Under the pieces are notes generated by a model. It made no database searches. It saw nothing but the letters and a program-made list of their open reading frames with translations, and was not told where the DNA came from. 64,000 nt of DNA, from assembly GCA_018302545.1 (NCBI GenBank), contig JAGVZM010000002.1, forward strand, positions 2,198 to 66,197. The letters are read 5' to 3'. The stretch is from Candidatus Woesearchaeota archaeon (GTDB lineage: Archaea > Nanobdellota > Nanobdellia > SCGC-AAA011-G17 > GW2011-AR18). Below, in pieces: positions 2,843-55,403 of the stretch. A program made the position numbers and the translations under genes. Position 1 is the stretch's first letter. Each line of letters opens with the position of its first letter.

Positions 2843-4307
2843 AACAGAGGTTATTCTTAGTATAACTCAAACCATTTATACCATAGAATTCTTTGGTTTC
2901 ATCAGAAACATAAATAAAATTAATATTATACTTCCTCAATAAATCTAAAGCTAATGCTTCACTAGGAGTAGTATAAATAAGTTCTATATCCCTATATCTA
3001 ACAACTGGATCAGGAGCAACTGCAAAATTAGTGTCTATCACATTTTTCCTCATGCCATAATAATTTATTAGATTACCCTCTTCAAAATTTCCCAAGATAA
3101 CATGCTCAGGTAGAGTATTAATACTTAACCACTTAATTTGCTTTACTTTATTATCTGTTAATTGTCGAGAATTATTAGCAGAATCATAAGAAGGAATAAA
3201 AGATAAAAAAATAAAAGAGAATATTAAAACAACTACGAATACTGTTCTCAATCTAATAAACTTAAAATTACTAAAATAGTCATAAACCAAAGTAAAAGTA
3301 GAAGAAGAAAACACACATAGAACTAAACCTAAAAAAATTAAACCAATAGATATTGATAAAAATCTAAAAAAAAGCAATATTAAAACTGAAAGACCAAAAG
3401 AAGCAAGTAAATAAGCAAGTTTCTTCTTTTCTCTTATAACACTAACATAAACCCCAAAAGCTCCCAAAACTAGAGGTAAAAGACCCAATCCAAAGATTAA
3501 ATCTGTAGAGGAAAATTGTCTAAAGAGATCATTAAAAATATTAGAAGGGATATTATTCCAGAGCAAGCCTAATCCATGTTGCAAAATCATTTTTTTATAT
3601 ATTAAAAGTTGTAATAATAAGATTAGAAAAGAAGAGAAGAAAATTGCTTCCTTTTTAATCCTAGTGGAAGATAAAGCTCCTCCAGATAATAAAAAAAGAT
3701 ACAAAAAACCCATAAAAACAAATAGTAGAGAAGAAGGATGTAATAAAGGCAACAAAAAGGAACCTAGAACAAAAAACCAAAGATATTTCTTATCATCCAA
3801 TCTAGTCAAACTATATACCATAAGTAATAAAAGTGGCAGAATAAATGTGTAAATAGAAAGATTATTTAGAGTTTCATAAAATATTAAAGGATAAAACCCA
3901 AAAAGCAAAGAAGAGAATAAAGCACCAAAAGAATTACCGCTTATATCTTTAGATACTAAATAAACCACAAAAACAGTTAAAGAAATTGCTAACTCAGGAA
4001 TCAACTTCAACATAAAAACAGAACCAAAACTAAATAACGCCATTAAAATATGAAATAAATGAGGATAGATTACATCAATACCACCATAACTCAAAGGATC
4101 ATAAATCATTACAGTTCCTTTTTCTAATATGTGTTCAATATACTTCAAGTGAAAATAAGCATCATCGGTATTGAAATATTCTACCTGAAAAGCAAAGTAC
4201 ATTCTAAATGCTAAAATAAATAAAAAGATAAGTAAAAGTAAAATATGTTCAACTTTTATCTTCTTCATTAGTTTTCTCCCCAGAGGATATATTTTCACTA
4301 TTAACAT
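2799..4307 (-). CDS. polytopic GT-C-fold membrane protein, short AglB/STT3-like oligosaccharyltransferase homologue with degenerate catalytic motif
   Basis: 502 aa; first loop FNTDDAYFHLKYIE (compare STT3 FDPYFNYR); WWDYG position reads LINYYGMR followed by KNVIDTNF (compare DNNTW); more likely start is M14 (MKKIKVEH) at 4268. Confidence 0.5.
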   Translation of the reverse strand: MLIVKIYPLGRKLMKKIKVEHILLLLIFLFILAFRMYFAFQVEYFNTDDAYFHLKYIEHILEKGTVMIYDPLSYGGIDVIYPHLFHILMALFSFGSVFMLKLIPELAISLTVFVVYLVSKDISGNSFGALFSSLLFGFYPLIFYETLNNLSIYTFILPLLLLMVYSLTRLDDKKYLWFFVLGSFLLPLLHPSSLLFVFMGFLYLFLLSGGALSSTRIKKEAIFFSSFLILLLQLLIYKKMILQHGLGLLWNNIPSNIFNDLFRQFSSTDLIFGLGLLPLVLGAFGVYVSVIREKKKLAYLLASFGLSVLILLFFRFLSISIGLIFLGLVLCVFSSSTFTLVYDYFSNFKFIRLRTVFVVVLIFSFIFLSFIPSYDSANNSRQLTDNKVKQIKWLSINTLPEHVILGNFEEGNLINYYGMRKNVIDTNFAVAPDPVVRYRDIELIYTTPSEALALDLLRKYNINFIYVSDETKEFYGINGLSYTKNNLCFESFREGRYYFVHC

Positions 4308-4812
4308 TTTCTGTTTTTTCTTCCAATACTTTATCCATTTTAATTTTTAATTGATTTTCAACTATGTCAAAATAATCAAAAAATTTGCTAGTTAATTTAA
4401 TTATTTTAGATCTACCAAAAGGTTCAGAAACAATAAAGTCTAATTCTTTCAAAAGTTTTATATGATCATAAGCTCCATTTCCCCTTATTTTTATTATTTC
4501 GCTTTGTAATGCTGGATTCTTATATGCAATAACTGCTAAAGTCTCTTGTGTAGCCCCATCAAATTCAGCTTCTTGTAATAATGATTGAGTCAGGTGAAGA
4601 TATTCTTTTCTTATATTCAATTTCCATTTATCTACCTGTTGGGTTATCTCCAAGGAACAATTCTTATTTTTGTAATCTTTCACTAATTCAAACAAAACTT
4701 CTTTCAAATAACCAACACTAGCAATTCCAGTCATCTTACTAATCTCATCTAATCCTATAAATCTACCAGTAGTAAACAAGATAGCCTCTACTTTATTTTT
4801 ATCTTCCTGCAT
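4249..4812 (-). CDS. scpB: segregation and condensation protein B (ScpB)
   Basis: 187 aa; N-terminal VEAILFTTGRFIGLDEISKMTG and second winged-helix ETLAVIAYKNPALQSEIIKIRG typical of ScpB. Confidence 0.75.
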   Translation of the reverse strand: MQEDKNKVEAILFTTGRFIGLDEISKMTGIASVGYLKEVLFELVKDYKNKNCSLEITQQVDKWKLNIRKEYLHLTQSLLQEAEFDGATQETLAVIAYKNPALQSEIIKIRGNGAYDHIKLLKELDFIVSEPFGRSKIIKLTSKFFDYFDIVENQLKIKMDKVLEEKTENVNSENISSGEKTNEEDKS

Positions 4813-4859: not shown

Positions 4860-5255
4860 CTACCTAAAAGAATTAGGAGAACAAACTCTAAAGACAACAC
4901 CCTCCTCTCCAACAGACCTAACAAAGATATTAATTCCATTAATATTTTCAACACTATTAACATCTATATTCCCTAAAACCCCATTAATACCAAATGTAAC
5001 AACATCTGAAGTAAAGTCCTGCAAAATTATTGTTCTACCAACATTAGGAGCATTTAATGCAGAATTTCTTAAATTAGATCTAAAATCAACCCCATCACAA
5101 AGTTCAAAATCACTAGAATTGTTTTCACTTCCAACATCCTTAACAACATTTCCTGTAATAAGATCTCCACTTAAAATTTTATTTCCATAGAACCCTATAC
5201 TAAAAACTAATAAAACAATTACAATTCCAAAAACAGACCAAACCACTTTTTGCAT
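4860..5255 (-). CDS. hypothetical N-terminally anchored extracellular protein
   Basis: 131 aa; single N-terminal TM/signal anchor VWSVFGIVIVLLVFSIGFY; no recognisable family. Confidence 0.45.
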   Translation of the reverse strand: MQKVVWSVFGIVIVLLVFSIGFYGNKILSGDLITGNVVKDVGSENNSSDFELCDGVDFRSNLRNSALNAPNVGRTIILQDFTSDVVTFGINGVLGNIDVNSVENINGINIFVRSVGEEGVVFRVCSPNSFR

Positions 5256-5291: not shown

Positions 5292-6389
5292 CTAAAGTTC
5301 AACAGAATACCTTAGTATAGCTGCAACACCACCAAGTTCTTTTAATTGGGATCCTTCTTTAGTATCAAGACTAATAATAAATACATTAGTTCCCGTTTCA
5401 TTAGCTTTTTCTTCATATTCCTCAAGTTTAGAAAAACTCTCACTTAATAATAACTTATCAACTGCCCCATATTCTAAAGATTTTAAAACATCGGCAGGAC
5501 CATAAACCGCCTTATCTGAATTTTTAGATATTAGGGTAAAAAATTCATTAACAATCTTTTTTTCCTTTACAACTTCAGCTTCAGATAAAACATCCTGAGA
5601 TCTTTCAACTAATTCATTTAAACCTTCTTCATCAGTATAAGAGATATCCTTAATTGCTAAAACTTTCTTTCTTAATTCAGCATGAAGATGATTAGAATTA
5701 AAAAAAGTTTCTTTTGTTGGACCCGGACCACCTATTAATATACCCTTAAGATCCTTCCCTATTGCAGCAAATTCAATATTCGCAACATCAGAAACTCTCT
5801 TATAAAACTCATTAGCTGCCTCTTCTCTCAATCTTGCATACCTTTGTTGGGACCAGCCACCAACTTTCAATTTTCCAGGAACAGTAGAACTAAAATCTCT
5901 AATTACTTGTATGCTTTTCCCTTTTAATAAACCAAGTGTAGCTTCTCTATTATCCAAAACAAGCAATCCGTATATTTCATTTATTTGAATCATAGAATCC
6001 AAAGGATCTAAAATAAAAGTTTGATCACATCTATACATCCTAATGTTAACAGGAACAGGAGGCTCAACACTCCAGACTTGTATATCTTGTTTTCCTTCCT
6101 GCTCTGAAACATTACCAGAAAAAGCAGCCAATCCATTAGAAGGAGTAACCTTAAATAATCTCAAATGTCTTATCATCCTTTCTAAAGCATCTTGTACATT
6201 CTGTCTAGTAGTCTTGTCTTTTATATTAGAAGCAGTTCCTTGTTCCTGTGCCAAATGTTGAATTATTTTATTAAGATCATATCCTATAGGAATATAAACT
6301 GTAATAAGCTCAGTATGTCTAGCTCTATATTTTTTAAGTTCATTAACAAATTTCCTTAATTTAAATTGATTTTTTGTGTCCATATTCAA
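5292..6389 (-). CDS. prf1: peptide chain release factor aRF1 homologue with GGQ replaced by GGW and NIKS by NIKD
   Basis: 365 aa; GTASNIKDKTTRQNV (NIKS loop), YRCDQTF (YxCxxxF), PGKLKVGGWSQQRYARLREE aligns without gaps to eRF1/aRF1 PKKHGRGGQSALRFARLR; C-terminus GGVAAILRYSVEL; W codon is TGG at 5855-5853. Confidence 0.85.
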   Translation of the reverse strand: MNMDTKNQFKLRKFVNELKKYRARHTELITVYIPIGYDLNKIIQHLAQEQGTASNIKDKTTRQNVQDALERMIRHLRLFKVTPSNGLAAFSGNVSEQEGKQDIQVWSVEPPVPVNIRMYRCDQTFILDPLDSMIQINEIYGLLVLDNREATLGLLKGKSIQVIRDFSSTVPGKLKVGGWSQQRYARLREEAANEFYKRVSDVANIEFAAIGKDLKGILIGGPGPTKETFFNSNHLHAELRKKVLAIKDISYTDEEGLNELVERSQDVLSEAEVVKEKKIVNEFFTLISKNSDKAVYGPADVLKSLEYGAVDKLLLSESFSKLEEYEEKANETGTNVFIISLDTKEGSQLKELGGVAAILRYSVEL

Positions 6390-6403: not shown

Positions 6404-8785
6404 CTAAAACTCTATTTTAAGTTCCTTTCCATATTTTATTTCTTTGGCTTGCGTAACTGCCTTTAAGTCTTTATCTAATAATTTAAGACTTGTATAACAA
6501 TTCAAAAGTTTTAAAGGTTCCTTTAAAGATTTACCTTTAGAAGACTTCTCCTTCCTAACAAAACTAACTACTTCTACAAATTCATTCCCAATTTTCTCAG
6601 ATTTCTTATCAACTAAATTTTTATCAAAAATAGGCCAGGTACTAATATGCAAACTTTTATCCTTCTCTTTATCCTTAAATATGTCTTGATATAACTGTTC
6701 TGTAATGTAAGGCATAATAGGAGCAAATAATTTTAAGATATTAAGTAAGCAAGTATATAAAGTAAATAAAGAACTATCACGTTCTTTACTCTTACCTTCA
6801 CTATAAATCCTATATTTAACAAACTCTAAGTAATTATCACAAAAATCTTTCCAAAAGAATATATCAATCGCAGCTTTAGCTTTACTATATTCATAAACTT
6901 CAAATGCTTGAGTGCAAATTTGAATAGTATTATTCAATTTATTCAAGATCCATTTATCTATAATTTCTAACTCAACTTTTTTCAATTTGTAATTATCCAA
7001 ATGTTGTCTTGCAAAATTAAAAGAGTTCCATAATTTAGTAACTGTTCTTTGTCCAGTACTCAATTCCTTCTCCAAGTATCTCAAATCATCTCCTAATTTA
7101 GAACCTGCTGCCCAAAATCTTAAAGCATCTGCACCGTATTTATCTAAAACTTCTGCAGGTTCTATAGCATTACCTTTACTCTTGTGCATAGCTTGCCCTT
7201 TAGGATCCAAAACATGCCCAGAAATAACTATATCTTTCCAAGGAAGTTTGTTATGATGATATAAACCTTTAACAATTGTATAAAAAGCCCAGGTTCTTAT
7301 TATATCATGTGCCTGAGGTCTTAAACTACAAGGATACATTTTATCAAAATCAAAATCATAAACATTATCCTTTACCCAATTTAAAATAATTTGAGGAGTT
7401 ACACTAGATGTAGCCCAAGTATCCATTACATCCTTTTCTGCTTCAAATTCATTATTACCACATTTACATTTAGTCTTAGGCTTATCATTTAAAGGATCAA
7501 CAGGAAGTTGTTTTTCATCAGCAATAATAACTTCAGAACAGTTCTTACAATACCAAACCGGAAAAGGAACTCCAAAATGTCTCTGCCTAGATATACACCA
7601 GTCCCATTGCAAACCTTGAATCCAATGCTCATATCTTAACCTCATAAATTGGGGATACCAATTTATTTTTTTACCTTCATCAATAAACTTCTTTTTATTA
7701 TCCAAAACTTTAATGAACCATTGTTTTGTACTTAAGAATTCTATTTCTGTTCCGCATCTTTCATGTACATTAACAACTTGTTTAAGAGGTTCTTGTTTAA
7801 CTAAAACTCCTGCCTCTTTCCAATCTTCTAAAACTAGTTCTCTAGCCTCTTTTACACTCATACCTTTATACTTTCCTGCTTTATCATTCAATTTTCCATC
7901 TTTATCAAGGATATGTATAACCTCTAATTCTGGATGTTTCCTTACAAATTGAAGATCATGAATATCTCCATAAGGACACCAATATACTGCACCTGTTCCA
8001 AATTCAATTTTAGAGAAGTCATCAGCTATTATTGGAACCTGAATATTACTAATAGGAATTGTTGCTTTCTTACCAATTAAATTCTTATATCTTTTATCCT
8101 CTGGATGAACAGAAATAGCAATACAAGCCATCATAAGTTCAGGCCTTGTAGTAGCAAAAGTTATGTTGCTTCCCCCCTCAACTTCAACTTTTACATAATT
8201 TAATTTAGATTCTCTTTCTTTGTCTTCCAAATCAGCTTGAGCTATAGCTGTTTGACAATGAACACACCACATAGTAGCGTCCTCACTTTGATAAACTAAT
8301 TTTTTCTTGAATAGATCAATGAAAGATTTTTGAGAAGTCCTTATGCAATGCTCATCTATCGTAGAATAAGTTTTAGAAAAATCACAGCTCATACCCACTA
8401 ATTTCCAATCATTAATAAAATCAGGTTTAATTTCCTCAATAGTCTTTTCACATAATTCTACAAATTCATGTCTACTCATTTTTGTAGACCTAACGTTCTT
8501 TAATTTCTCAACTAATTTCTCTGTAGGTAAACCATTATCATCTGTACCAAAAGGAAAAAAAACATTATCTCCTTTCATTCTATGATATCTAACAACAATA
8601 TCTTGTTGTGTATAACTAAAAGCATGTCCTAAATGCATCTTACCAGATACAGTAGGAGGAGGAGTATCTACAACATAAGGTTTAGCTTTAGATTTTTTAT
8701 TAAATACATAAACCTTTTCTTTTTCCCAAAATTCTCTCCATTTCTTTTCTACATCCTTAAAAACATATTTATTGTTACTATTCAT
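6404..8785 (-). CDS. valS: valyl-tRNA synthetase
   Basis: Class I aaRS; PPPTVSGKMHLGHAF (HIGH), CP1 editing region, AMHKSKGN (KMSKS variant); ORF opens at 8866 but MNSNNKYVFKDVEKKW at 8785 matches family N-termini. Confidence 0.9.
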   Translation of the reverse strand: MNSNNKYVFKDVEKKWREFWEKEKVYVFNKKSKAKPYVVDTPPPTVSGKMHLGHAFSYTQQDIVVRYHRMKGDNVFFPFGTDDNGLPTEKLVEKLKNVRSTKMSRHEFVELCEKTIEEIKPDFINDWKLVGMSCDFSKTYSTIDEHCIRTSQKSFIDLFKKKLVYQSEDATMWCVHCQTAIAQADLEDKERESKLNYVKVEVEGGSNITFATTRPELMMACIAISVHPEDKRYKNLIGKKATIPISNIQVPIIADDFSKIEFGTGAVYWCPYGDIHDLQFVRKHPELEVIHILDKDGKLNDKAGKYKGMSVKEARELVLEDWKEAGVLVKQEPLKQVVNVHERCGTEIEFLSTKQWFIKVLDNKKKFIDEGKKINWYPQFMRLRYEHWIQGLQWDWCISRQRHFGVPFPVWYCKNCSEVIIADEKQLPVDPLNDKPKTKCKCGNNEFEAEKDVMDTWATSSVTPQIILNWVKDNVYDFDFDKMYPCSLRPQAHDIIRTWAFYTIVKGLYHHNKLPWKDIVISGHVLDPKGQAMHKSKGNAIEPAEVLDKYGADALRFWAAGSKLGDDLRYLEKELSTGQRTVTKLWNSFNFARQHLDNYKLKKVELEIIDKWILNKLNNTIQICTQAFEVYEYSKAKAAIDIFFWKDFCDNYLEFVKYRIYSEGKSKERDSSLFTLYTCLLNILKLFAPIMPYITEQLYQDIFKDKEKDKSLHISTWPIFDKNLVDKKSEKIGNEFVEVVSFVRKEKSSKGKSLKEPLKLLNCYTSLKLLDKDLKAVTQAKEIKYGKELKIEF

Positions 8786-9097
8786 TTTATCAACTCCAAA
8801 TAAGATGGTATATAAAATATAATGTAAATGCAATAGCCTAAAGGCTATGCCACCACTACAGAACAAACTAATAAAAACAATACAACACTGAAATTATTGT
8901 TTCTAATCATAAAAAAAAGATAATTAAAAGATATTAAAACCTTTCGATTGAAAACATTTTTAGATTTTAAATAAAAAAGACATAAAAAACTATAATGAAA
9001 AACAGCAAAAACTTTAATAAGAGTAATTTAATCAAAAACAATATTGGGCCTGTAGCTTAACCTGGGAAAGTACACGACTGAAGCTCGTGTTATTGTG

Positions 9098-16808: not shown

Positions 16809-18868
16809 ACAACATCATACTTAACTAGATTACATTCCTTATGACTCTTAACCTCAACGAAATTCTTCAAAATTTTCAAAACATCTTCAAGATTATATTT
16901 AATCTCCAATTTATCATCAAAACTAAAGGGAATAAATTCATTCTTTTCATAACAAACAAATTCATTCAATCTCAATAAGGTATTCAAATTATTATGAAAA
17001 ACAAACCCATTACCTTCCTGAACTAAAAACATTTTACTAACTAAACTAGTTAATAAACTCAAAGCTTTAGAAAATTGTATTCCTGTTTTAGCAAATACAT
17101 CTGCAGCAGTAAATTTTTTATTCATTTCTATACAAGTAGCTAAAACTTTTATCTCTTCTTTACTCAATTTATCAAAATCCAAGAAAAAATCAACACCAAC
17201 TCCCCTCTCAAGATCGTTAATTATCTGCCCATTATATAGATTAATTAAAAGATTAAACTCTTTATTATTTTTTATACAAGTAAACATATAACATGGGATC
17301 ATAATAGCTTTCAGACTCTCAATCTTCCTATTAACCAAACCTTTAATCTCTTCTTTAGTAACCTTAGGTCTTATCATACTAACAACTTCCTTACCAGTAT
17401 CATTCCATTGTCTTTTTTTAACTTCAACATCTTCAGAAATTAATTGTTTAGGTAATTCTTCATATTCAATATCCGCATCAACAAAAGTACCAACAACATC
17501 TATACTTTGACCACCATGCAAAGTCATTCTAGGTCTGACATCAATAAACAAAGGCATATCAGAAATACCCACAAGCATAGCAGTTCCTACATGCAAATTA
17601 ACAATTTCCTTCTCAGTCTCAGAAGTTATACCTTCAACAGAATTACTTATAGATTTAAGATCATTAGGATTAGTTATTTTTAATATAAATTGAGTACTAC
17701 ATTGTGAAAGAACAGTCTTGTCTAAACGTGCAGGTCTTTGTGTAACTAAAGCAACACCTAAACCGAACTTTCTACCTTCAGCTATTACTTGTCTTAAAAT
17801 AGGAGAGCTTTTAGCTTCTCCAAAATTTCTTTCAGGAGAATAATTATGAGCTTCCTCCACAACCAAAAAAAATGGTGGAATTTCCCCTCTTTTTCTAGCA
17901 CTAAATAAATCATTAACTAATTTATAAACAATAATCTCTTGCACTTCTTGGGGCACCCCTCTTAAATTAAGAATACTACATTTTCCAACTTTAACCAAAT
18001 CATTTGGAGTTGTACCATCAGATTCAGAAAATATATTTAAACTTTTCAAATAATCAATAACATTTATTAAAGTCCATTTAGCATTATTCTCTTCTGATTG
18101 TAAACTCAGCATTAATTGATCAAAATCATTTACTCTATTAATATTACTTAAAGCACCATACAATAAACCCATTTGACTGCCGCTTAATTTAGCAGGAAGC
18201 ATATGCATTAATTCACTTCCAGTCATGCCTTTTGTATTTAATTTTAAAAGTTTAGCTTCTGGATTTTTCTCAACATCAGGACTAAATTCTTGTATTTGTT
18301 TAAAATAACCTTTAGGTTCTAATCCGAATTTTTTTAACATCTCTCCATCTTTACTAGGATACTTTAAACTAGAATATTCTCCATGTGGATCAATAACAAC
18401 AATTGGAATTTTTCTTTCTAAAATTTCTTCTAAAAGAATAGAAACCAAATATGACTTTCCAGATCCAGACTTAGCTAATACTGCTAGATGTTTAGTAATT
18501 ATTTTATTTAAATCCAAATAAACTTTAATATTTTCTCTATCTTCTAACACCCCCACATAAGCACCCCTTTTACTTTCTTTTAAACCCAAAATATTCCTAA
18601 CTATCTCATCTTCAGCATATTCTATCTCTGCACCGGGTTCCAATGGTGTCCTTAAATTTCTTAAAATACCAAATTTATCTCTATAACCCATAATATTACA
18701 TTTAGCTTTAGTTTCTTCTTTCTCTTTTTGAACATCTACAATTTGAGCTAAAACAATATAATCTTCTTTATGTTTCGCTTTAACATACATAAATTTCTTA
18801 GCAGTATCCTCTACTAGAAAGTAAAATTCATTAGTACCACTTTTTCCAATTATATGTCCAAGGACCAT
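16796..18868 (-). CDS. herA: HerA-like (DUF87/FtsK-HerA superfamily) ATPase with about 230-aa C-terminal extension
   Basis: 690 aa; N-terminal HAS-barrel-like MVLGHIIGKSGTNEFYFLV; Walker A AKSGSGKSY; Walker B FFLVVEEAH; arginine-finger region LVTQRPARLDK; extra C-terminal domain with possible winged helix. Confidence 0.7.
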   Translation of the reverse strand: MVLGHIIGKSGTNEFYFLVEDTAKKFMYVKAKHKEDYIVLAQIVDVQKEKEETKAKCNIMGYRDKFGILRNLRTPLEPGAEIEYAEDEIVRNILGLKESKRGAYVGVLEDRENIKVYLDLNKIITKHLAVLAKSGSGKSYLVSILLEEILERKIPIVVIDPHGEYSSLKYPSKDGEMLKKFGLEPKGYFKQIQEFSPDVEKNPEAKLLKLNTKGMTGSELMHMLPAKLSGSQMGLLYGALSNINRVNDFDQLMLSLQSEENNAKWTLINVIDYLKSLNIFSESDGTTPNDLVKVGKCSILNLRGVPQEVQEIIVYKLVNDLFSARKRGEIPPFFLVVEEAHNYSPERNFGEAKSSPILRQVIAEGRKFGLGVALVTQRPARLDKTVLSQCSTQFILKITNPNDLKSISNSVEGITSETEKEIVNLHVGTAMLVGISDMPLFIDVRPRMTLHGGQSIDVVGTFVDADIEYEELPKQLISEDVEVKKRQWNDTGKEVVSMIRPKVTKEEIKGLVNRKIESLKAIMIPCYMFTCIKNNKEFNLLINLYNGQIINDLERGVGVDFFLDFDKLSKEEIKVLATCIEMNKKFTAADVFAKTGIQFSKALSLLTSLVSKMFLVQEGNGFVFHNNLNTLLRLNEFVCYEKNEFIPFSFDDKLEIKYNLEDVLKILKNFVEVKSHKECNLVKYDVVYTR

Positions 18869-21942: not shown

Positions 21943-23814
21943 ATGACAAATCCAGAAAATCAACTAATAGACCAAAGATTACAAAAATTAGAAGAAATAA
22001 GAAAGTTAGGAATAGAGCCATATCCCTATTCATACAAAACAAATACTACAGCAAAAGAAATTAAAGAAAAGTTCTCAAAATTAAAGAATGAAGAAAAAAC
22101 TAAAGCTAAAGTATCCCTCTCTGGAAGATTAATGACTATTAGGAGAATGGGTAAAGCATCTTTTGCTCACTTACAAGATCACACAGACAAGGTACAATTC
22201 TACATAAGAGAAGATGAAGTAGGAAACTCTGAATATGAAATATTTAAAAAATTAGATATGGGCGACATTATAGGAATAGAAGGAATAATATTCAAAACAA
22301 AGACAGGAGAAGTTTCTATATGGATAAAAAAATTAACTTTCTTATCTAAGTGCCTACGTCCCTTACCAGAAAAATGGCATGGATTAAAAGATGTAGAAGC
22401 AAGATACAGACAAAGATATCTAGACTTAATAGCAAATCCAGAAGTAAAGGAAATATTCATAAAAAGATCTAAAATAGTATCTGCTGTAAGAGAATTTTTA
22501 GAGATGAAAGGTTATATTGAAGTAGACATTCCAACTTTACAACCTCAATATGGGGGAGCAAATGCAAAACCATTCAAAACCCATATTAATGCTTGGAATA
22601 TAGATCTATATTTGAGTATTTCACCAGAGTTATATTTAAAAAAATTAATAGTTGGAGGATTTGATAAGGTCTTTACTATTTGTAAAAATTTTAGGAATGA
22701 AGGGGTTGACAAAACGCATAATCCAGAATTCACAATGATGGAGTGTTATGCAATAAATGAAGACTATAATTATTTATTAGAATTAATCGAAGATTTATAC
22801 ATATATGCAGCTGAAAAAGTTTTAGGAACAACAAAGATAACTTATCAAGGACAGAAAATTGATTTGAAAAAACCATGGAAAAGACTAACAATGTATGAAT
22901 CACTAAAACAATATGCTAATTTAGATGTCTCAAAAATGTCAGATAAAGAATTAATAAAACAAGCAAACTCACATGGGGTTCAAATAGAGAAAAATACACC
23001 AAGAGGATTAATAATTGAAGCATTATTTGGAGAACTAGTAGAAAAACATCTTATTCAGCCCACTCACCTAATAGATCATCCAAAAGAGACAACACCACTA
23101 TGCAAAGTAAAAAGGGGAGATGAATGTCTAATCGAAAGAGTCGAACCTTATATTAATGGATGGGAAATTGGAAATGGTTATTCTGAATTAAACGATCCAA
23201 AGATACAATATGAATTATTCAAAGAACAAGAAGAAAGAGGAAGAGCGGGAAATGAGGAATTCCATCCAATGGACGAAGATTATGTTAAAGCTTTAGAAAC
23301 AGGTTTACCTCCAACAGCAGGAGTTGGCTTAGGAATTGATAGAATGGTAATGTTACTAACAGATTCCACTACAATAAGAGATGTAATATTATTCCCTACA
23401 ATGCGTCCAGAAAATAAAGATGAGGAAAAAATAACAAAAGAAAATATTTTAGAACAAGAAGGAATAATAGTTGGCAAAGTAGTAAAAATAGAGAAACACC
23501 CAAATGCAGATAATTTAAAAATATGTACTATAAACATAGGAAATAAAGAGGTAATTTCTGTAACAAACTGTAAAAATGCAAGAGAAGGAATGATAATTCC
23601 AACAATATTAACAGGAACAAAATATTTTGATTGGAAAGGTTCAGGAAAAATATTAGTAGCAAAAAGATCAGAGTTAAGAGGAATAGAAAGCAACGCTATT
23701 ATGGGCGCTGGAGAAGAAATAGGATTGCCAACTCCAGAAGACAAAAGAGAATTAATATATGAACTAAAATCCGGAAAACCAGGAGACAAAGTAAAAGATC
23801 ATATACATAGATAA
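21943..23814 (+). CDS. lysS: class II lysyl-tRNA synthetase with C-terminal Trbp111/EMAPII-like tRNA-binding domain
   Basis: 623 aa; RYRQRYLDLI, FRNEGVDKTHNPEFTMMECY (motif 2), GLGIDRMVMLL (motif 3); residues about 510-623 GKVVKIEKHPNADNLKICTINIG...LRGIESNAIMGAGEEIGL match the tRNA_bind OB fold. Confidence 0.9.
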   Translation: MTNPENQLIDQRLQKLEEIRKLGIEPYPYSYKTNTTAKEIKEKFSKLKNEEKTKAKVSLSGRLMTIRRMGKASFAHLQDHTDKVQFYIREDEVGNSEYEIFKKLDMGDIIGIEGIIFKTKTGEVSIWIKKLTFLSKCLRPLPEKWHGLKDVEARYRQRYLDLIANPEVKEIFIKRSKIVSAVREFLEMKGYIEVDIPTLQPQYGGANAKPFKTHINAWNIDLYLSISPELYLKKLIVGGFDKVFTICKNFRNEGVDKTHNPEFTMMECYAINEDYNYLLELIEDLYIYAAEKVLGTTKITYQGQKIDLKKPWKRLTMYESLKQYANLDVSKMSDKELIKQANSHGVQIEKNTPRGLIIEALFGELVEKHLIQPTHLIDHPKETTPLCKVKRGDECLIERVEPYINGWEIGNGYSELNDPKIQYELFKEQEERGRAGNEEFHPMDEDYVKALETGLPPTAGVGLGIDRMVMLLTDSTTIRDVILFPTMRPENKDEEKITKENILEQEGIIVGKVVKIEKHPNADNLKICTINIGNKEVISVTNCKNAREGMIIPTILTGTKYFDWKGSGKILVAKRSELRGIESNAIMGAGEEIGLPTPEDKRELIYELKSGKPGDKVKDHIHR

Positions 23815-25049: not shown

Positions 25050-26042
25050 ATGAAAAAAATAATATACATAATAATAACTTTAATTTTTTTGCCATTAGTA
25101 TATGCAGAATGTGATTGTACTTGTGAAGATCCAAAAGCAAATCTATCCTTACCAGAAGGCCATTGCAATATTTCATTAACATTAAAAACAGATAAAGATA
25201 GGTACAAAAATGAAGAGAAAATAACAATTTTCAATGAATTGACAGAAAAAAAACAAGACTTTACTATTGAATATTGGATAGAGGATATAAAAGGAGAGAT
25301 AATAAAAGAAAAAACTGAGACAAAAAATACAAATAAAAAACAATTCACACCAAAACTAACTGAGAATACAACTTTAGTAATAAAAAACAACTTAACTTAT
25401 TTAGATTGTAAAAATATAATAGTAGAGAACTATAATAAGGTAGAAGTATTCATAGAAGTCCAGCCAAAAAAAGAACCAGAATTAGAATTAATTAATTATT
25501 CAAAGAAATTAAATTTATCAGACGAATTAAACATCTCTTTAATGATATATTCAGGAGATAATATAAACTATTCAATAGCCTTTTGGATTGACAATATAAC
25601 AAAAACAGAAGATTATAAGATAGATCAAAGATACAAAAATGAAACAGTAAATCTAAGTATTAAGATCCCAAATAACTGTAGTATAGAATCAAAAAAGTAT
25701 GATTTAATAATAAAATCTCAAGAAAAAGAAATAAAGAAAAAAATAGATATAGAAAACAATTGCAAGGAAAAAGAGGAAGAACTAGAGGAAAATACAGAAA
25801 AATGCATTTTAAGCATACATTCAGAAGAAAATAACTCCGAAAACATTATAAATCAAAGTGCAAACCCAATCACAGGATTCACAATATATGAATCCACAAC
25901 AATAAAATCAAAGGAAATAGCTAAATACTTATTGATGATTATATTAGCATCAATTTTAGTATTTATAATCACAATAAACAAAGGAGTAGGAAAAGCAATA
26001 AAAGAATATTCACAAAAATGGTCTTCACAATTAGAGCACTGA
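25050..26042 (+). CDS. hypothetical secreted, C-terminally anchored surface protein
   Basis: 330 aa; signal peptide MKKIIYIIITLIFLPLVYA; many N-x-S/T sequons; C-terminal TM YLLMIILASILVFIITI. Confidence 0.55.
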   Translation: MKKIIYIIITLIFLPLVYAECDCTCEDPKANLSLPEGHCNISLTLKTDKDRYKNEEKITIFNELTEKKQDFTIEYWIEDIKGEIIKEKTETKNTNKKQFTPKLTENTTLVIKNNLTYLDCKNIIVENYNKVEVFIEVQPKKEPELELINYSKKLNLSDELNISLMIYSGDNINYSIAFWIDNITKTEDYKIDQRYKNETVNLSIKIPNNCSIESKKYDLIIKSQEKEIKKKIDIENNCKEKEEELEENTEKCILSIHSEENNSENIINQSANPITGFTIYESTTIKSKEIAKYLLMIILASILVFIITINKGVGKAIKEYSQKWSSQLEH

Positions 26043-26407
26043 TTGAAGTTCTGGGTTTTCCTGAAGAACACATTAAAGAAATTGTAAAAAAAGTATTAGA
26101 AAAACTAGAAAAAGAAGACGGGATAGAAATAATAAATAAAGAGATACATGAAACCCAAAAAGTAAAGGAAACCTTCTTCTCGTGTTTTACAGAATTAGAA
26201 TTAAAGATACATGATTTAAGTATACTATTAAAGTTCTGTTATGATTATCTTCCCTCAAATATTGAGATATTAGATGCAGATAACATAACTATACCCTCAA
26301 GAGAGTTCAACTTAAGTATAAATGAAATGTTAGAGAGGTTGCACCAATATAATATAATAGTAAACAACCTATCAAACCAAGTCAAAAAATTAGAAAAGCC
26401 TCAGTAG
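26018..26407 (+). CDS. hypothetical protein
   Basis: 129-aa soluble ORF overlapping the upstream gene by 25 nt; no family recognised. Confidence 0.45.
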   Translation: MVFTIRALIEVLGFPEEHIKEIVKKVLEKLEKEDGIEIINKEIHETQKVKETFFSCFTELELKIHDLSILLKFCYDYLPSNIEILDADNITIPSREFNLSINEMLERLHQYNIIVNNLSNQVKKLEKPQ

Positions 26408-27738
26408 TTCTTTCTCTTTTGAACGCTCTCAACAAAACCCTCAAATTTATCTTTTTTAGGTTTCATTTTTCTATAAACAATAAATATTATTAACAAAAAG
26501 ATTATCAAAAATATAAACAAAAGAATAAAACCATATCCTCCTTCATCTCCATTTTTAATTGTAGTCTTATTAAATTCAACAAAAGAGTTATTAACAGAAT
26601 TATTAATTTCATTATCAACTTGAACATTAATAGATTTATTAAGAACATTCAAACTAACAGGGATACTAACAAAAGCATTTTCTGCACTTCTAACTTTTAA
26701 GGTACCGTAATAATTTCCAGGTTTTAAATTACTACTATCCTTAAACCCAAAAGAAAATGAAATACTATTATTAGCACTTAAAAAGCTAATCTTAGAGGGT
26801 TCAATCTCAAAAAGATCATCATCAAAACCTTCAGTATAATAACTCAAATTATGCAAATCCACACTGGCATTATTAACAACGACAATTTGTCCTGGAGGAT
26901 AATAATCTCCTATGTTTGTATTTGGCAAACTTATATTTATTAATTTTATACCAGAACCTCTAGTTAAGTAAATTGCATCATTAATTCCAGTCAAATCAAT
27001 ATTTTTTTTAGCCAAGTCATCTGGTTTAACATTAGTATCATTATTATTTTCAGATTTTTCAACATAATTAGTATCAATAATAAAAGGAATGATATAATTA
27101 CCAGAACCATAATCAACAAGAATTCTTCCATTAAATCTAGAAGCCCTCTTATTAAATAAAGAAGTTCTGACTTGAACATTTTTAGATTTATCAGGAGCAA
27201 GATTAAAATTAGATTCATCTAAACTAAAAAAGCCGCCTTCTGCAACTAAAGAGATAGAAACAGAATTATTCATTTTATTACTAAAAACTAAAACAAAAGG
27301 CACTTCATCTCCAGAATTTACAGCCTGATAAAAATATCCAGGCCTTATACTAACACTAGATTTATTAACAATCTTAAGATTAGAAAAAAAATCCTGTCTC
27401 TTCAATATCCCCTTTTCAATATAATTTATATTTTTAAAGCCAATCATATATTCCCCAGAAACAACTTGAGGCAAATCAAAATAAAAAGCATAAAAAGTAT
27501 TGTTAATCTTAACCTTATTTTTAATAATATTCAAAGAATTATTATTCATGTCTAATAATACTATATCAGAAACAGAAAGATCCCTATTTAAAGACAAATT
27601 TGTAAAAACTTCAAATTGAACAGTTTCAAAAGAACCATAGTCATTTTTATAAAGATTAATTTCAAAATCAGAAGCATTAACAAAAGAGATAATTAATAAA
27701 AATGAAACAACAACCAAAAAAAGATTTCTAAAAAACAT
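26401..27738 (-). CDS. hypothetical secreted beta-rich surface protein with C-terminal TM anchor
   Basis: 445 aa; signal peptide MFFRNLFLVVVSFLLIISFVNA; C-terminal TM GFILLFIFLIIFLLIIFIVY plus basic tail; starts 1 nt after the stop of the upstream gene. Confidence 0.6.
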   Translation of the reverse strand: MFFRNLFLVVVSFLLIISFVNASDFEINLYKNDYGSFETVQFEVFTNLSLNRDLSVSDIVLLDMNNNSLNIIKNKVKINNTFYAFYFDLPQVVSGEYMIGFKNINYIEKGILKRQDFFSNLKIVNKSSVSIRPGYFYQAVNSGDEVPFVLVFSNKMNNSVSISLVAEGGFFSLDESNFNLAPDKSKNVQVRTSLFNKRASRFNGRILVDYGSGNYIIPFIIDTNYVEKSENNNDTNVKPDDLAKKNIDLTGINDAIYLTRGSGIKLINISLPNTNIGDYYPPGQIVVVNNASVDLHNLSYYTEGFDDDLFEIEPSKISFLSANNSISFSFGFKDSSNLKPGNYYGTLKVRSAENAFVSIPVSLNVLNKSINVQVDNEINNSVNNSFVEFNKTTIKNGDEGGYGFILLFIFLIIFLLIIFIVYRKMKPKKDKFEGFVESVQKRKNY

Positions 27739-27739
27739 A

Positions 27740-29602
27740 TTAACCTTTAAGTAATTTTTGAGCTTCCTTTAAGGATTTATCTAAATCATCTTCCCCTTTA
27801 ACTCTAGGGCTAGGGCCTAAGGGTCTTAAAGGCCTTGTGGGAGTAAAAGGCTTTGTAGCAGGTTTAACAGGTTGTATAGTTGGTCTTTGAACAGGTTTAA
27901 ATTCTGCTTGTCTCCTAAAGTTTTCAAAATTGGGCCTATCAGATTTTTTCTTAAACAAACTTCCTAAATCTACTTTACCAGTTTTAACATATTTAAAGTA
28001 AAAGAAAGCTCCTCCTCCCCCTAAGATTACCAAGATAATTAACAACCATAACCACCATAAACTACTAGGCTCATCTTCAATAGGAGGTAATGTGGTGTCA
28101 TCTTCATCATCATCCTTAGGAACCTTAAATGGTTCCTCCTCTTTATCATCATCAGAATCTAAACAAGCAACTCTACATCTGCCGCCACAATCAACACCTT
28201 CCTCATCACCATCTTGTCTTCCATTATCGCAAACACATAAAGGATCCTCAACACATGCAGAATCACCACAATCAGTTAAACCATCTCTATCATTATCAAT
28301 ATCATCTCCACAAACCTCAACATCTAAACTAACTCCATCTGAAGGAGTACTGGGTAAAGAAACCCTAGATAATTCAGCACCATGTAAAGCAATTAAAGCC
28401 CAGGAAGTACTCTCTATACTATTCCCCCAATGACCTTCATCTTTATCAACCCTTTTTTGTAAAAAATCAATGCCTTTAGAGACTGCTTCACCTGCTCCTC
28501 CCAAATCAGTTCCAAGTAAACCAAAAATAGAAACACTTGTATCTTTAATACTTCCTCCCCAACTACCATCAACAGCTCTTTGTAATTTAACTAGATCATT
28601 GATAAAAGAAGGCAATACATTAGAAGCTTTAAATCTAATCCTATTCAAAAAACCCAATTTATCTGCTTGATTTCTTTTAGTTAGAGATTGACTCTCTAAA
28701 TAAATGTGTGTTCCTAAATTATCTAAACTTAACTCACTATTACTTCTAACAGAACCAACTTCAAGTAATGCCCAAGTAGCATATAATGTACTTTCATAAT
28801 CACATCTAGAATCTGTTTTAGTTCTACCAAAACAAGCATTAGCAATTTTTAGATTCGTATTAAAACCCGCATCACTCCTTTGAATAAAAAAAGTACTTGC
28901 ACTTGGTTTAAAAACTAAAGTAATAACTGGATCTCCTAAATCTTGATTACAAGATATTCCAATATTTGGCTGAACTTCTGTTCTAACTAAATTTCTACTA
29001 AGTTCATTTAGACTTATATAATACCCGCTTCTTCCACCTGTTGATTTTATTTTATCTCCCTCAATAGTATATGTTTTGGTCCTTGTACCTCCGTAATTAA
29101 CTTCACAAGTACCATTATTCCCTTTAACAACAATCCACCAATCTCCAGTTGGGGGCATAGCAACCCTAGAACTCCTTAACCAGTTTACTTCTTCACTAAC
29201 ATTCCTTCCAGCCAAAGCTAAAGTCAAAGTAGCTAAAGAAGTATCCTTAACATTACAATTACCTGCAGGCCAACAACCATCAGAATCCCTATTGCTTTCA
29301 ATTCTTTCAATCATACCTTGTACATTAATATCACCTTTTTGCATCAAAGCTATAGTTGATAAAGACATTTCATCCACACTTAAAGATGAAGTATTACTAA
29401 CTTTATCATAGAGCCATTTGTAAGATTTATCTTGACTAAATCCTGAAGATTGAACTCTAAACCTAGAACCAGTACTAGAATCTTGATCTGAACTAGAATC
29501 TTCTTCATCAGAAGAAGTATGGTTTTCTGCATAAGCAAAAGACAGACACATTAAAAAAACCAGAATAATGACTAAAGACTTAAAAAACACACCTCTTTCC
29601 AT
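27740..29602 (-). CDS. secreted prenyltransferase/terpene-cyclase-like (alpha/alpha toroid repeat) surface protein with Cys/Asp-rich module, TM anchor and Pro-rich cytoplasmic tail
   Basis: 620 aa; signal peptide; repeats DGCWPAGNCNVKDTSLATLTLALAG, DGSWGGSIKDTSVSIFGLLG, EGHWGNSIESTSWALIALHG; CGDDIDNDRDGLTDCGDSAC...CGGRC; TM WWLWLLIILVILGGGGAFFYF; tail PVQRPTIQPVKPATKPFTPTRPLRPLGPSPR. Confidence 0.65.
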   Translation of the reverse strand: MERGVFFKSLVIILVFLMCLSFAYAENHTSSDEEDSSSDQDSSTGSRFRVQSSGFSQDKSYKWLYDKVSNTSSLSVDEMSLSTIALMQKGDINVQGMIERIESNRDSDGCWPAGNCNVKDTSLATLTLALAGRNVSEEVNWLRSSRVAMPPTGDWWIVVKGNNGTCEVNYGGTRTKTYTIEGDKIKSTGGRSGYYISLNELSRNLVRTEVQPNIGISCNQDLGDPVITLVFKPSASTFFIQRSDAGFNTNLKIANACFGRTKTDSRCDYESTLYATWALLEVGSVRSNSELSLDNLGTHIYLESQSLTKRNQADKLGFLNRIRFKASNVLPSFINDLVKLQRAVDGSWGGSIKDTSVSIFGLLGTDLGGAGEAVSKGIDFLQKRVDKDEGHWGNSIESTSWALIALHGAELSRVSLPSTPSDGVSLDVEVCGDDIDNDRDGLTDCGDSACVEDPLCVCDNGRQDGDEEGVDCGGRCRVACLDSDDDKEEEPFKVPKDDDEDDTTLPPIEDEPSSLWWLWLLIILVILGGGGAFFYFKYVKTGKVDLGSLFKKKSDRPNFENFRRQAEFKPVQRPTIQPVKPATKPFTPTRPLRPLGPSPRVKGEDDLDKSLKEAQKLLKG

Positions 29603-31046: not shown

Positions 31047-32024
31047 TTATTCAGATTTAGAATGAACACTAGTTTTAAAACCATAATCAAGTGCACATTT
31101 AGTAACAATCCCATTAACTTGTTTATAACCTATATCTCCTGTGACATCCAATACTTTATCCTTTCTACCAGAACATTCAATATCTAAAATTCTAACTTTT
31201 ACTCCCTGTCCTCCAATATGATGGCCATAACTTCTAATCCTTTGTGCAGTAGAAATAACAATTGCCCTATCAGGAACATCTACTAAAGTAACAACATATT
31301 TCCTCTGAGCCCTTAGATCCTCTTCTAATCTCCTAGCAGAACCCAAAACCTTTGTAGCTACAAATGTTCTAAACAAATTTTCACCATCACTTGGTTTTTC
31401 AAAAGAACTAGTTTTTGCATATCGATCTTTTAAAGCAATATTCAACAGAGCTATGTAATGTTCTCTATCAGAGGGAACTATAATTCCTGGAGTGTATCCT
31501 GATTTTTTCAAGCAATAACCTTGTACTAATCTAGCAGATCTACCATTACCATCTACAAAAGGATGAACTTGAACAATTTCTAAATGTGCTTCTATCGCTT
31601 TTAAAACAGGATGAGCTTGACTGTGTTCCATCAATTCTACTAAACTTTTCATTCTGCCAGCAATTTGATCATAATCATGTGGAGGATTAAAACTCCCAAA
31701 TTGAACTTCAGTAATTCTAAAATTTCTTGTTTTATTTTTATCTGGTTCTATTAAATAACCTAAAGCAGCTAAAGTCCCTAAACTTAAACCATACATATCT
31801 AAATGACTTGAAGCAGAATCTAAATTTTGGAGGGCTACTCTCTCCCTCTTTCTCAAAGCAGATTTTTTTAGATTTTCTTCCTCTAACTCTAAGGACAATG
31901 AATGTTTGGCTGCCTCAGCAAGCAAAGTGTTAAACTCTCTAGTTCTTAATGAACTAGAATATTCTGGATGAACATTAATTCTCTCTACTACTTCATCTAT
32001 TTTAGCAAGTAACTTTTTCATCAT
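31047..32024 (-). CDS. Fic/DOC family protein (predicted AMPylase) with extra C-terminal domain
   Basis: 325 aa; canonical Fic motif HPFVDGNGRSARL (HxFx[DE]GNGRxxR); about 100-aa C-terminal domain of unknown family. Confidence 0.85.
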   Translation of the reverse strand: MMKKLLAKIDEVVERINVHPEYSSSLRTREFNTLLAEAAKHSLSLELEEENLKKSALRKRERVALQNLDSASSHLDMYGLSLGTLAALGYLIEPDKNKTRNFRITEVQFGSFNPPHDYDQIAGRMKSLVELMEHSQAHPVLKAIEAHLEIVQVHPFVDGNGRSARLVQGYCLKKSGYTPGIIVPSDREHYIALLNIALKDRYAKTSSFEKPSDGENLFRTFVATKVLGSARRLEEDLRAQRKYVVTLVDVPDRAIVISTAQRIRSYGHHIGGQGVKVRILDIECSGRKDKVLDVTGDIGYKQVNGIVTKCALDYGFKTSVHSKSE

Positions 32025-53241: not shown

Positions 53242-53281
53242 ATAAAATAGAACATCAAAATAGCTATTTAAAATTATTCTT

Positions 53282-53689
53282 TTAATCAGACCAGATAGAA
53301 ACAAACATTAAGATAGTAACTAAAGGAAATAAATTTGTTATAAATGCATATTGTGGGAAAAACCAAACACCCACCATTATTTCAACAACAGCAATAATTG
53401 CAAAAATTTTGCTCATGTGATGTCCCCTTCTAGCAAATACCCAAAATAAAACAAAAGCACCTATCGCACCAGCAAGATCAAATAAACCATTATCAAAACT
53501 TAATAGATCTATAGCATCAACAGCAATTGCAAAAGGTAGTTTCCACAAATCCAAAGCAATATCTAAAAAGTGTTTTAAAGAAAACAAAACAGCAAAAGCC
53601 AGAACAATACCAAAAATAACCCAACCATAATCAAAAGGTTTACTAACAGAATTAACAACAAAACCTGTTAAATCATCTAAACCGAACAT
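53282..53689 (-). CDS. hypothetical integral membrane protein
   Basis: 135 aa, 4 TM; immediately upstream of and co-directional with the giant surface protein gene. Confidence 0.5.
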   Translation of the reverse strand: MFGLDDLTGFVVNSVSKPFDYGWVIFGIVLAFAVLFSLKHFLDIALDLWKLPFAIAVDAIDLLSFDNGLFDLAGAIGAFVLFWVFARRGHHMSKIFAIIAVVEIMVGVWFFPQYAFITNLFPLVTILMFVSIWSD

Positions 53690-55167: not shown

Positions 55168-55403
55168 ATCCTTGGACGGCAGTTCGAATCTGCCCGGGAC
55201 TATTTTTCCAATAAATTTAAATAACTTTAGTCTTAATCTATTTTCATGAAAACATCAAAGCTAATACAAAATAAGTATTTTTTCTTAGCCATGCTTATGA
55301 TGTTCTAATAGCCTAAAATATTTAGGAGGCCATTGCAATGATAAAAAACAACAAACAGATAGAAGAAGGAACTTTTAAATATCTAGAACTATCAAAGAAA
55401 AAA

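Follow-up and report, generated by a model that had tools for sequence, protein, structure and literature searches.

The Gly-Gly-Gln (GGQ) tripeptide is a textbook motif, conserved by convergence in the release factors of bacteria, archaea and eukaryotes; in each of these domains dedicated methyltransferases act on its glutamine, a residue whose exact catalytic role has been debated for 25 years. What, then, is to be made of an archaeal release factor that carries a tryptophan at this very position? Such a protein is encoded on a 64,000-nucleotide stretch of DNA from a Candidatus Woesearchaeota archaeon (NCBI GenBank assembly GCA_018302545.1, contig JAGVZM010000002.1, positions 2,198 to 66,197 of the forward strand; hereafter the window), where the gene for the termination factor aRF1 reads Gly-Gly-Trp (GGW). 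A first, sequence-only reading of the window proposed that this protein should recognize stop codons without releasing peptides, as a repurposed paralogue or, if it were the only copy, as the agent of an unusual termination. Here we follow the motif through related genomes. The loss of the glutamine is neither an error nor a peculiarity of one genome, and the change has been kept across whole archaeal lineages in an apparently ordinary termination factor.

A variant aRF1 with tryptophan at the GGQ glutamine

Aligned by phmmer with 4af1 and 3agk, the best solved relatives of the window protein, and with human eRF1, Trp179 stands exactly on the Gln of GGQ, with tens of ungapped residues on either side; the loop reads vpgklkvGGWsqqryarlr, against vpgkqrkGGQsaqrfarlr in the solved aRF1/eRF1 proteins. 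Because the tryptophan aligns without gaps to the missing glutamine, we term the protein a variant aRF1. The codon at this site is TGG in six related GGW loci, TTC or TTT in loci that read Gly-Gly-Phe (GGF), and CAG in GGQ relatives, so the step from Gln to Trp takes two nucleotide changes and that from Gln to Phe three. The sequence-only reading had likewise put Trp at the catalytic Gln and its codon two substitutions away from a Gln codon, and the alignments and the CAG codons of the relatives bear out both points. In the GGQ relatives at L004, L011 and L014 (L and P numbers are our handles for loci and proteins), the catalytic Gln is encoded by CAG and not CAA, despite AT-rich genomes (the window has 29% GC).

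Only the rarity of the motif speaks for a sequencing or assembly error or a decaying pseudogene. The window DNA recurs in the European Nucleotide Archive assemblies ERZ27254845 and ERZ4903137 with 0 differences over 3092 nt, and such identity in independent assemblies rules out an error. Error and decay alike are ruled out by TGG or TTY codons in related loci amid many synonymous differences, by an intact open reading frame (ORF), and by a ratio of nonsynonymous to synonymous substitution rates (dN/dS) of 0.05–0.2 within the GG[W/F] clade. Taken jointly, the two explanations have next to no chance of being right.

Every aRF1 membership feature that we examined is present in the window protein except the Gln of the GGQ loop. 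The protein scores 432.7 bits against the TIGR03676 aRF1_eRF1 equivalog (cutoff 234.7), and the Pfam domains eRF1_1, eRF1_2 and eRF1_3 are matched in N-M-C order, each above its gathering score. The Pelota model TIGR00111 reaches 120.4 bits, below its cutoff of 177.65, in a match restricted to the M and C domains. For aVLRF1/acVLRF1, NF041024 reaches 43.1 bits, below its cutoff of 125. On the same residues of the M domain, PF18859 (acVLRF1) scores 49.6 bits vs 132.7 bits for eRF1_2, and the GGxSQ motif of aVLRF1 and acVLRF1 is matched literally by G177-G178-W179-S180-Q181. Across 65 relatives that mix GGW, GGF and GGQ forms, T52, A53, N55, I56, K57, Y119, R120, C121 and F125 are invariant, as are G177, G178, S180 (+1, counted from the site of the Gln), R183 (+4) and the C-terminal LRY.

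An AlphaFold2 (AF2) model of the protein, built from 65 relatives with a mean predicted local distance difference test score (pLDDT) of 85, resembles aRF1 4af1 with a TM score of 0.83. Residues 168–180, W179 among them, form a flexible loop (pLDDT about 60), and the next helix begins at Gln181. This is a model of the free state, which bears on fold and loop flexibility and not on catalysis. Judged by its sequence, the window protein is a variant of the aRF1/eRF1 family and not a typical member.

Distribution of aRF1s without the glutamine

Among the 120 database proteins nearest to the window protein, the approximately 30 closest homologues (at least 65% identity), from many independent metagenomes, all carry GGW or GGF, and the remoter ones carry GGQ. 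In an exhaustive search of representatives clustered at 50% identity, the 150 best aRF1 entries include GGW, GGF, GGM, GGA and GGS forms. A profile made from one non-Gln group retrieved 118 further proteins named by NCBI as Aenigmatarchaeota, of which 113 are GGW, one GGF, one GGM and three GGQ, and a GGQ-type query of the same neighborhood still returned GGW in about 104 of 120 Aenigmatarchaeota proteins. Whether GGW is conserved within lineages had been asked at the first reading; the nearest homologues, all GGW or GGF, and the predominance of GGW in the Aenigmatarchaeota show that the loss of Gln is.

In a pooled set of 413 readable aRF1s, which is centered on the query lineages and is no census of archaea, the residue at the site is Gln in 216, Trp in 167, Phe in 20, Met in 7, Ala in 2 and Ser in 1. 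Trp, Phe or Met makes up 194 of the 197 replacements. Leu, whose codons lie a single step from those of Gln and from those of Trp, Phe or Met, occurs in none of the 413 sequences. In approximately 30% of the Aenigmatarchaeota GGW aRF1s, the loop is GGWSAN or GGWSAS and contains no Gln.

In further aRF1 lineages, the Gln position is taken by Met in P0148, P0155, P0159, P0164 and P0221 (GGM), by Ala in P0261 and P0262 (HMGGASQ) and by Ser in P0243 (GGS). P0201 (GGW; GCA_003558235.1, L016) is encoded beside TruD and a gene for diphthamide synthesis, and RuBisCO is encoded on the same contig. The Aenigmatarchaeota set comprises P0273–P0420, with the loci L017, L018 (on the 1.1-Mb contig ERZ25039515 contig_22876; GGW, P0310) and L019–L021.

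Residues that change with the glutamine

On a neighbor-joining tree computed with the motif region masked, the non-Gln sequences form 16 maximal clades, and every alignment column was scanned for how closely it follows the loss of Gln, with clades as the unit of counting. Positions +2 (Gln181) and +5 (Tyr184) rank first of all columns in their coupling to the loss of Gln. Gln stands at +2 in 15 of the 16 non-Gln clades vs 36% of GGQ sequences, and Tyr at +5 in 11 of the 16 vs 22%. When sequences are pooled, Gln at +2 is found in 159 of 197 non-Gln forms (81%) vs 67 of 216 GGQ forms (31%), and either Gln at +2 or Asn/Gln at +3 in 190 of 197 vs 110 of 216. The signature of the non-Gln loop is GG[W/F/M]-S-Q-x-R-Y.

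Within the Aenigmatarchaeota, the 16 GGQ forms listed (13 + 3) all have Ala or Ser at +2, whereas 70% of the GGW forms have Gln there, so Gln at +2 was gained together with Trp. A strict “shifted glutamine” rule is nevertheless weakened by the GGWSAN and GGWSAS forms of the same lineage: Ala occupies +2 in 38 of the 197 non-Gln aRF1s, and in 7 an amide is missing from both +2 and +3.

Genomic position, copy number and selection

The window gene is a positional orthologue of GGQ aRF1 genes, a relationship that holds in two lineages. The gene order ValRS (valine--tRNA ligase), aRF1, ScpB, DUF6541-like protein, hypothetical protein, GT2 is found at GGW loci (the window, L001 and L006–L010), at GGF loci (L002, L003, L005 and L013) and at GGQ loci (L004 and L011/L012); the GGQ loci L014 and L023 retain only ValRS followed by aRF1. 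In the Aenigmatarchaeota, aRF1 stands between a KaiC-like ATPase and Nop5 both at the GGW locus L017 and at the GGQ loci L020/L021.

The 64-kb window holds no second aRF1 and no Pelota homologue, and none of 10 large GGW-bearing contigs (115 kb–1.1 Mb) is shared with any GGQ-type match among the matches listed. In the results of a GGQ query, GGW and GGQ sequences are interleaved at equal identity (60–69%). A genome scan found 10 close-relative loci, one per genome, a result that is uninformative on distant paralogues; P0376 and P0383 both lie on 3934-bp contigs, and L019 has a single aRF1. By these comparisons, which are indirect, a displaced and repurposed paralogue is unlikely.

The GGW aRF1 is under purifying selection, as the dN/dS values above indicate, and its rate is unremarkable: the distance to the outgroup is 0.448 for the GG[W/F] clade vs 0.445 for its GGQ neighbors, with no acceleration in any domain. 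Genes in the window end with TAA (38), TGA (22) and TAG (10), 89% of the window is coding under the standard code, and the sole tRNA in the window is tRNA-Ile(GAU), with no suppressor tRNA there. An omnipotent release factor is therefore needed, and stop-codon reassignment was rejected on the same three observations.

Origins of the non-Gln loop and inteins at the motif

A single ancient clade of non-Gln paralogues was rejected, as the non-Gln sequences fall into up to 16 separate clades, some of them 85% identical to a GGQ sequence. P0027 and P0028 are 85% identical to the GGQ protein P0033, and P0255 shares 62% identity with a GGQ sequence and only 40% with any other non-Gln one. The gene for P0027 (GGF; L022 117–1223) and that for P0033 (L023 5030–6136) share approximately 80–90% nucleotide identity along their length. 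In 20-codon windows over the motif this identity falls to 0.63–0.68, and there P0027 is 0.80–0.82 identical to the GGW genes of the window (5292–6383) and L001. The tract, of about 20–30 codons, matches GGW/GGF genes down to synonymous codons (Arg AGA vs CGT/CGC, Ser TCA vs AGC). Because this tract resembles GGW genes and the rest of the gene resembles GGQ P0033, conversion of short tracts can carry the cassette from one lineage to another, and 16 origins is an upper bound because at least P0027 is such a recombinant. More distant non-Gln cases look independent, judging from lineage-specific flanks that have been kept, e.g., HGKHNAGGWSQARY beside HGKHRAGGQSHRRF.

The loop is also a site of intein insertion. 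Of the 413 sampled aRF1s, 73 carry an intein (C...HN, 130–570 aa) precisely at the junction of GG[Q/W/F/M/S] with the next Ser, and the window gene has none. A link between inteins and the loss of Gln was rejected, with carriers among 46 of 216 GGQ and 27 of 197 non-Gln forms and hence no enrichment. Mini-inteins persist intact in GGW alleles, where they use the GGx|S site known from GGQ alleles; we count this in favor of a working factor. The P0027 tract suggests that the cassette spreads by gene conversion, perhaps when it is co-converted with a homing intein. None of the papers listed by a full-text search on inteins in aRF1/eRF1 mentions an intein.

How a GGW loop may act in termination

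Published work identifies the main-chain amide of the GGQ glutamine as the catalytic group, with Pro substitution abolishing release, and assigns to the side chain a packing role that selects water as the nucleophile; further van der Waals contacts, to U2506, A2451 and 2452, come with N5-methylation of the Gln (PMC4691834, PMC5799190, PMC6742477). In Haloferax, the GGQ Gln is methylated by Mtq2 (PMC6144793). Titles among the references of two articles indicate that substitutions of the Gln in human eRF1 leave activity (PMC2613156, PMC12440015). Against this background, we lean toward the view, which we hold as a little better than an even call, that the window protein is an ordinary and probably the only class I release factor of its organism, one that would read all three stop codons through its unchanged N domain and would still release the peptide with a remodeled loop. 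The loop would have been remodeled from GGQ-S-x-x-R-F to GG-W-S-Q-x-R-Y. The chemistry would fall to the Gly-Gly pair and the backbone NH of residue 179, as in other release factors, and a bulky hydrophobic side chain, here that of Trp and in relatives that of Phe or Met, would take over the packing role of N5-methyl-glutamine against the nucleotides of the peptidyl-transferase center, with Gln181 and Tyr184 as co-adapted helpers. Sole-copy status, hydrolytic activity and the role of the Trp are what we infer from the comparisons above. The earlier prediction that the protein should not release peptides started from an overstated premise, as the studies just cited ascribe catalysis to the main-chain amide and only packing and water selection to the side chain; its fallback, an unusual termination by a sole copy, is the branch that the evidence favors. 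Several points weigh against our preferred view. Reviews term GGQ essential and universal (PMC2613156, PMC6144793), and tolerance of changes at this Gln in vivo is poor in model organisms, as yeast Q182E could not be propagated (PMC12440015). Packing alone leaves the tight coupling of the +2 Gln unexplained, Trp, being far larger than methyl-Gln, may be too big for its pocket, and a second, GGQ-type aRF1 may be encoded elsewhere, as the copy search spans the window and contigs.

On another reading, the same functional, sole factor would have moved its carboxamide, with Gln181 coordinating the hydrolytic water in the GGxSQ/GxuQ register and Trp as a spacer or anchor. We regard this as possible, though on the unlikely side. 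A downstream Gln in the catalytic place had already been raised at the sequence-only reading. The position most associated with the loss of Gln is indeed +2 (15 of 16 clades vs 36%), an amide stands at +2 or +3 in nearly all non-Gln forms (190 of 197 vs 110 of 216), and in the Aenigmatarchaeota Gln at +2 came along with Trp; moreover, GGxSQ is the motif of aVLRF1/acVLRF1 and GxuQ the general signature of the hydrolase domain (Burroughs & Aravind 2019, PMC6514570), and the Pfam acVLRF1 model also matches the M domain here, at 49.6 bits. Against it stand the 38 forms with Ala at +2 and the 7 without an amide at +2 or +3; the SAN and SAS loops argue that a water-coordinating Gln at +2 is not obligatory. 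Gln181 also opens a helix outside the loop tip, albeit in a free-state AF2 model of low loop confidence. Part of the +2 signal is also shared background, because GGQSQ is common in GGQ relatives as well. A different course would be a repurposed paralogue that binds a stop codon or an empty A site without hydrolysis, in a rescue, regulatory or hibernation role like that of Pelota or Balon, while a GGQ aRF1 is encoded elsewhere. The canonical catalytic Gln is absent, as it is in Pelota and Balon, relatives of the fold that are known non-hydrolytic A-site factors, though they are the weaker structural matches here. This proposal, which in its Pelota-like form goes back to the sequence-only reading, nevertheless strikes us as quite improbable. 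The gene occupies the slot of GGQ genes in two separate lineages (ValRS-aRF1-ScpB in that of the window), the window contains no second aRF1 or Pelota and the 10 large GGW contigs no GGQ match among those listed, the rate is not accelerated, the scores favor aRF1 (433 bits against a cutoff of 235) over Pelota (120 against 178), the stop-codon motifs are invariant, and a parallel duplication would be required in every switched lineage. We give still less credence to a sole aRF1 that is hydrolytically dead, reading the stop codon and recruiting ABCE1 for splitting while Pth2 or an aVLRF1-type factor hydrolyzes the peptidyl-tRNA off the ribosome or on the 50S subunit; this is very unlikely. The protein has lost the Gln and kept all parts for binding the ribosome and aEF1alpha, and the scheme is compatible in principle with the Pelota-type rescue pathway known in archaea. 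Yet the invariant Gly-Gly, Ser at +1 and Arg at +4, the restriction to Trp, Phe or Met, and the co-varying +2 and +5 positions indicate strong functional constraint on the loop. Because the catalytic loop decays in Pelota and Balon-type relatives (PMC2613156, PMC6514570) and stays tightly constrained here, a dead factor is the less likely, and neither the window nor the conserved neighborhood holds a candidate partner hydrolase.

Other features of the gene and the window

Two further traits of the window protein, the NIKD loop and the short domain C, were rejected as parts of the phenomenon, although the sequence-only reading had counted them with the anomaly. Its observation of NIKD in place of NIKS, with YRCDQTF kept, is correct, as both motifs can be read in the sequence. 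NIKD is the norm in Woesearchaeal aRF1s, however, GGQ ones included, and L, N or D as the fourth NIKS residue has been documented before (PMC2613156). Domain C, which had been put at about 45 aa short of a typical aRF1, does lack an insertion of about 50 aa that 4af1 and many other aRF1s have; Aeropyrum aRF1 3agk (373 aa) aligns end to end and also lacks the insertion, and a length of 360–370 aa is common to GGQ relatives. The GGW aRF1s of the Aenigmatarchaeota, in turn, show NIKS, and their domain C is long and bears a Cys4 insertion. Both are thus lineage traits, found in GGQ relatives too.

Downstream of aRF1 in L011, by approximately 6 kb and after GT2, a hypothetical protein and aMBF1, lies a gene for an MTS-domain methyltransferase of about 197 aa with an NPPFG motif (16944–17537), homologues of which occur in L001, L005, L006, L008, L010 and L012, at GGQ and GGW loci alike. 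It is probably not a release-factor enzyme, as it reaches 33 bits vs a PrmC/HemK cutoff of 199; its NPPFG motif suggests a METTL5-like enzyme. Next to the GGQ locus L019 lies another methyltransferase, of generic class I type, and neither enzyme speaks for or against a loss of the Gln methyltransferase Mtq2.

Table 1. Coordinates of the variant aRF1 gene, its domains and motif codons, its neighbors in the window, and intein-bearing relatives (positions in the window unless a locus is named).
Feature	Position	Strand	Remarks
aRF1 gene	5292-6389	(-)	365 aa from TTG 6389; more likely 363 aa from ATG 6383 (= NCBI protein P0001); stop TAG 5292-5294
Domain N, stop-codon recognition	5991-6353 (aa 13-133)	(-)	Pfam eRF1_1, 1.2e-16; TASNIKD (NIKD 6227-6216), YRCDQTF (6035-6015)
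Domain M, peptidyl-tRNA hydrolase domain with catalytic loop	5580-5972 (aa 140-270)	(-)	Pfam eRF1_2, 1.4e-38
GGT GGC TGG = Gly177-Gly178-Trp179	5853-5861	(-)	GGQ position; Trp (TGG 5855-5853) replaces Gln
TCC CAA CAA AGG TAT = Ser180-Gln181-Gln182-Arg183-Tyr184	5838-5852	(-)	Directly after Trp179
Domain C, aEF1alpha-binding	5301-5573 (aa 273-363)	(-)	Pfam eRF1_3, 2.3e-24; C-terminal end GGVAAILRY
Valine--tRNA ligase (ValRS) gene	6404-8866	(-)	NF009687, 1024.9 bits; 15 nt upstream of aRF1, same strand
131-aa ORF	4860-5255		Between aRF1 and ScpB
ScpB gene	4249-4812	(-)	Pfam SMC_ScpB, 2.1e-29; downstream of aRF1
Intein-bearing relatives	L006 9995-12355; L007 9950-12352; L009 9989-12169; L010 3376-4896; L008 6372-7898
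Intein-bearing proteins			P0009, P0012, P0015-P0018, P0020-P0022, P0036, P0043, P0050, P0121 and others

Elsewhere in the window, a ribosomal-protein operon with L3, L4 and SecY occupies approximately 33–48 kb. The methionyl-tRNA synthetase (55338–57527, +; tRNA-synt_1g, 5.9e-103) has a C-terminal B3_4 domain (aa 581–711, 9.2e-16), the usual home of which is the PheRS beta subunit, so that its fusion to MetRS is unusual. A class II tRNA synthetase of the Asp/Asn/Lys type (21943–23814, +) ends in a tRNA_bind (EMAP/Trbp111-like) domain. A Fic/DOC-domain protein (31047–32024, −) and a GH114 glycoside hydrolase (54264–55061, +, 3.8e-83) stand amid housekeeping genes. Four ORFs (50290–53304, −; 27740–29602, −; 26401–27738, −; 25050–26042, +) of 1004, 620, 445 and 330 aa have no Pfam match at E ≤ 1e-4.

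Comparison with known systems

The GGQ motif is called “universally conserved” in e/aRF1 (PMC2613156, PMC6144793, PMC5799190), and a survey of the superfamily treats GGQ as the classical aeRF-1 motif, with the di-glycine pair absolutely conserved (PMC6514570). Neither GGW, GGF or GGM forms of aRF1 nor any account of the motif in Woesearchaeota, Aenigmatarchaeota or DPANN at large came up in a full-text literature search, with most subscription journals outside its coverage. Exceptions to the textbook rule occur in nature, span whole lineages and bear a clear compensatory signature. We judge it fairly probable that whole lineages terminate translation with a sole, Gln-less factor, namely the majority of the Aenigmatarchaeota sampled, a large clade of Woesearchaeales to which this organism belongs, and several other small-genome lineages. 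Trp, Phe or Met, usually followed two positions on by Gln, would then offer a second way to achieve peptidyl-tRNA hydrolysis on the ribosome, and it may spread between lineages through gene conversion of short tracts where inteins home. A replacement of Gln by Trp, Phe or Met that is natural, long maintained and recurrent amounts to an evolutionary experiment that separates the main-chain from the side-chain roles of this residue, and it predicts which residues compensate, namely Gln at +2 and Tyr at +5. The fate of Mtq2 in the non-Gln lineages becomes a question in its own right. Annotation pipelines label the non-Gln proteins as ordinary aRF1 and leave the change unflagged; the Aenigmatarchaeota GGW proteins, for example, carry the plain NCBI name “peptide chain release factor aRF-1”.

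Set beside canonical aRF1/eRF1 (Halobacterium salinarum 4af1, Aeropyrum pernix 3agk), the window protein shares the three domains, TASNIK, YxCxxxF, Gly-Gly, Ser at +1, Arg at +4, LRY, the fold and the genomic slot, and differs in having Trp where they have Gln, with the coupled Gln at +2 and Tyr at +5. The closest parallel in another phylum-level lineage is the Aenigmatarchaeota aRF1 (e.g., P0310, P0295 and P0304), which shows the same replacement at the same position, mostly followed by Ser-Gln and with Tyr at +5, and is a positional orthologue of the GGQ genes of its own lineage; unlike the window protein, to which it is 50–55% identical, it has NIKS and a long domain C. The GGxSQ/GxuQ loop motif of aVLRF1/acVLRF1 (PMC6514570) fits GG-W-S-Q, but the window protein has a stop-reading N domain and an aEF1alpha-binding C domain, whereas VLRF1s act in rescue and not in stop-codon termination (PMC6514570). 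Pelota/Dom34 and the bacterial hibernation factor Balon have homologous M and C domains and no catalytic Gln, and are weak structural matches; the window protein keeps the NIKS-type loop, YxCxxxF and the entire GGQ arm intact, none of which Pelota possesses (PMC2613156). Finally, laboratory GGQ mutants of RF1, RF2 and eRF1 have the same residue substituted. Those changes were engineered and are usually deleterious, whereas the state described here is natural, lineage-wide and long maintained, with co-varying residues at +2 and +5.

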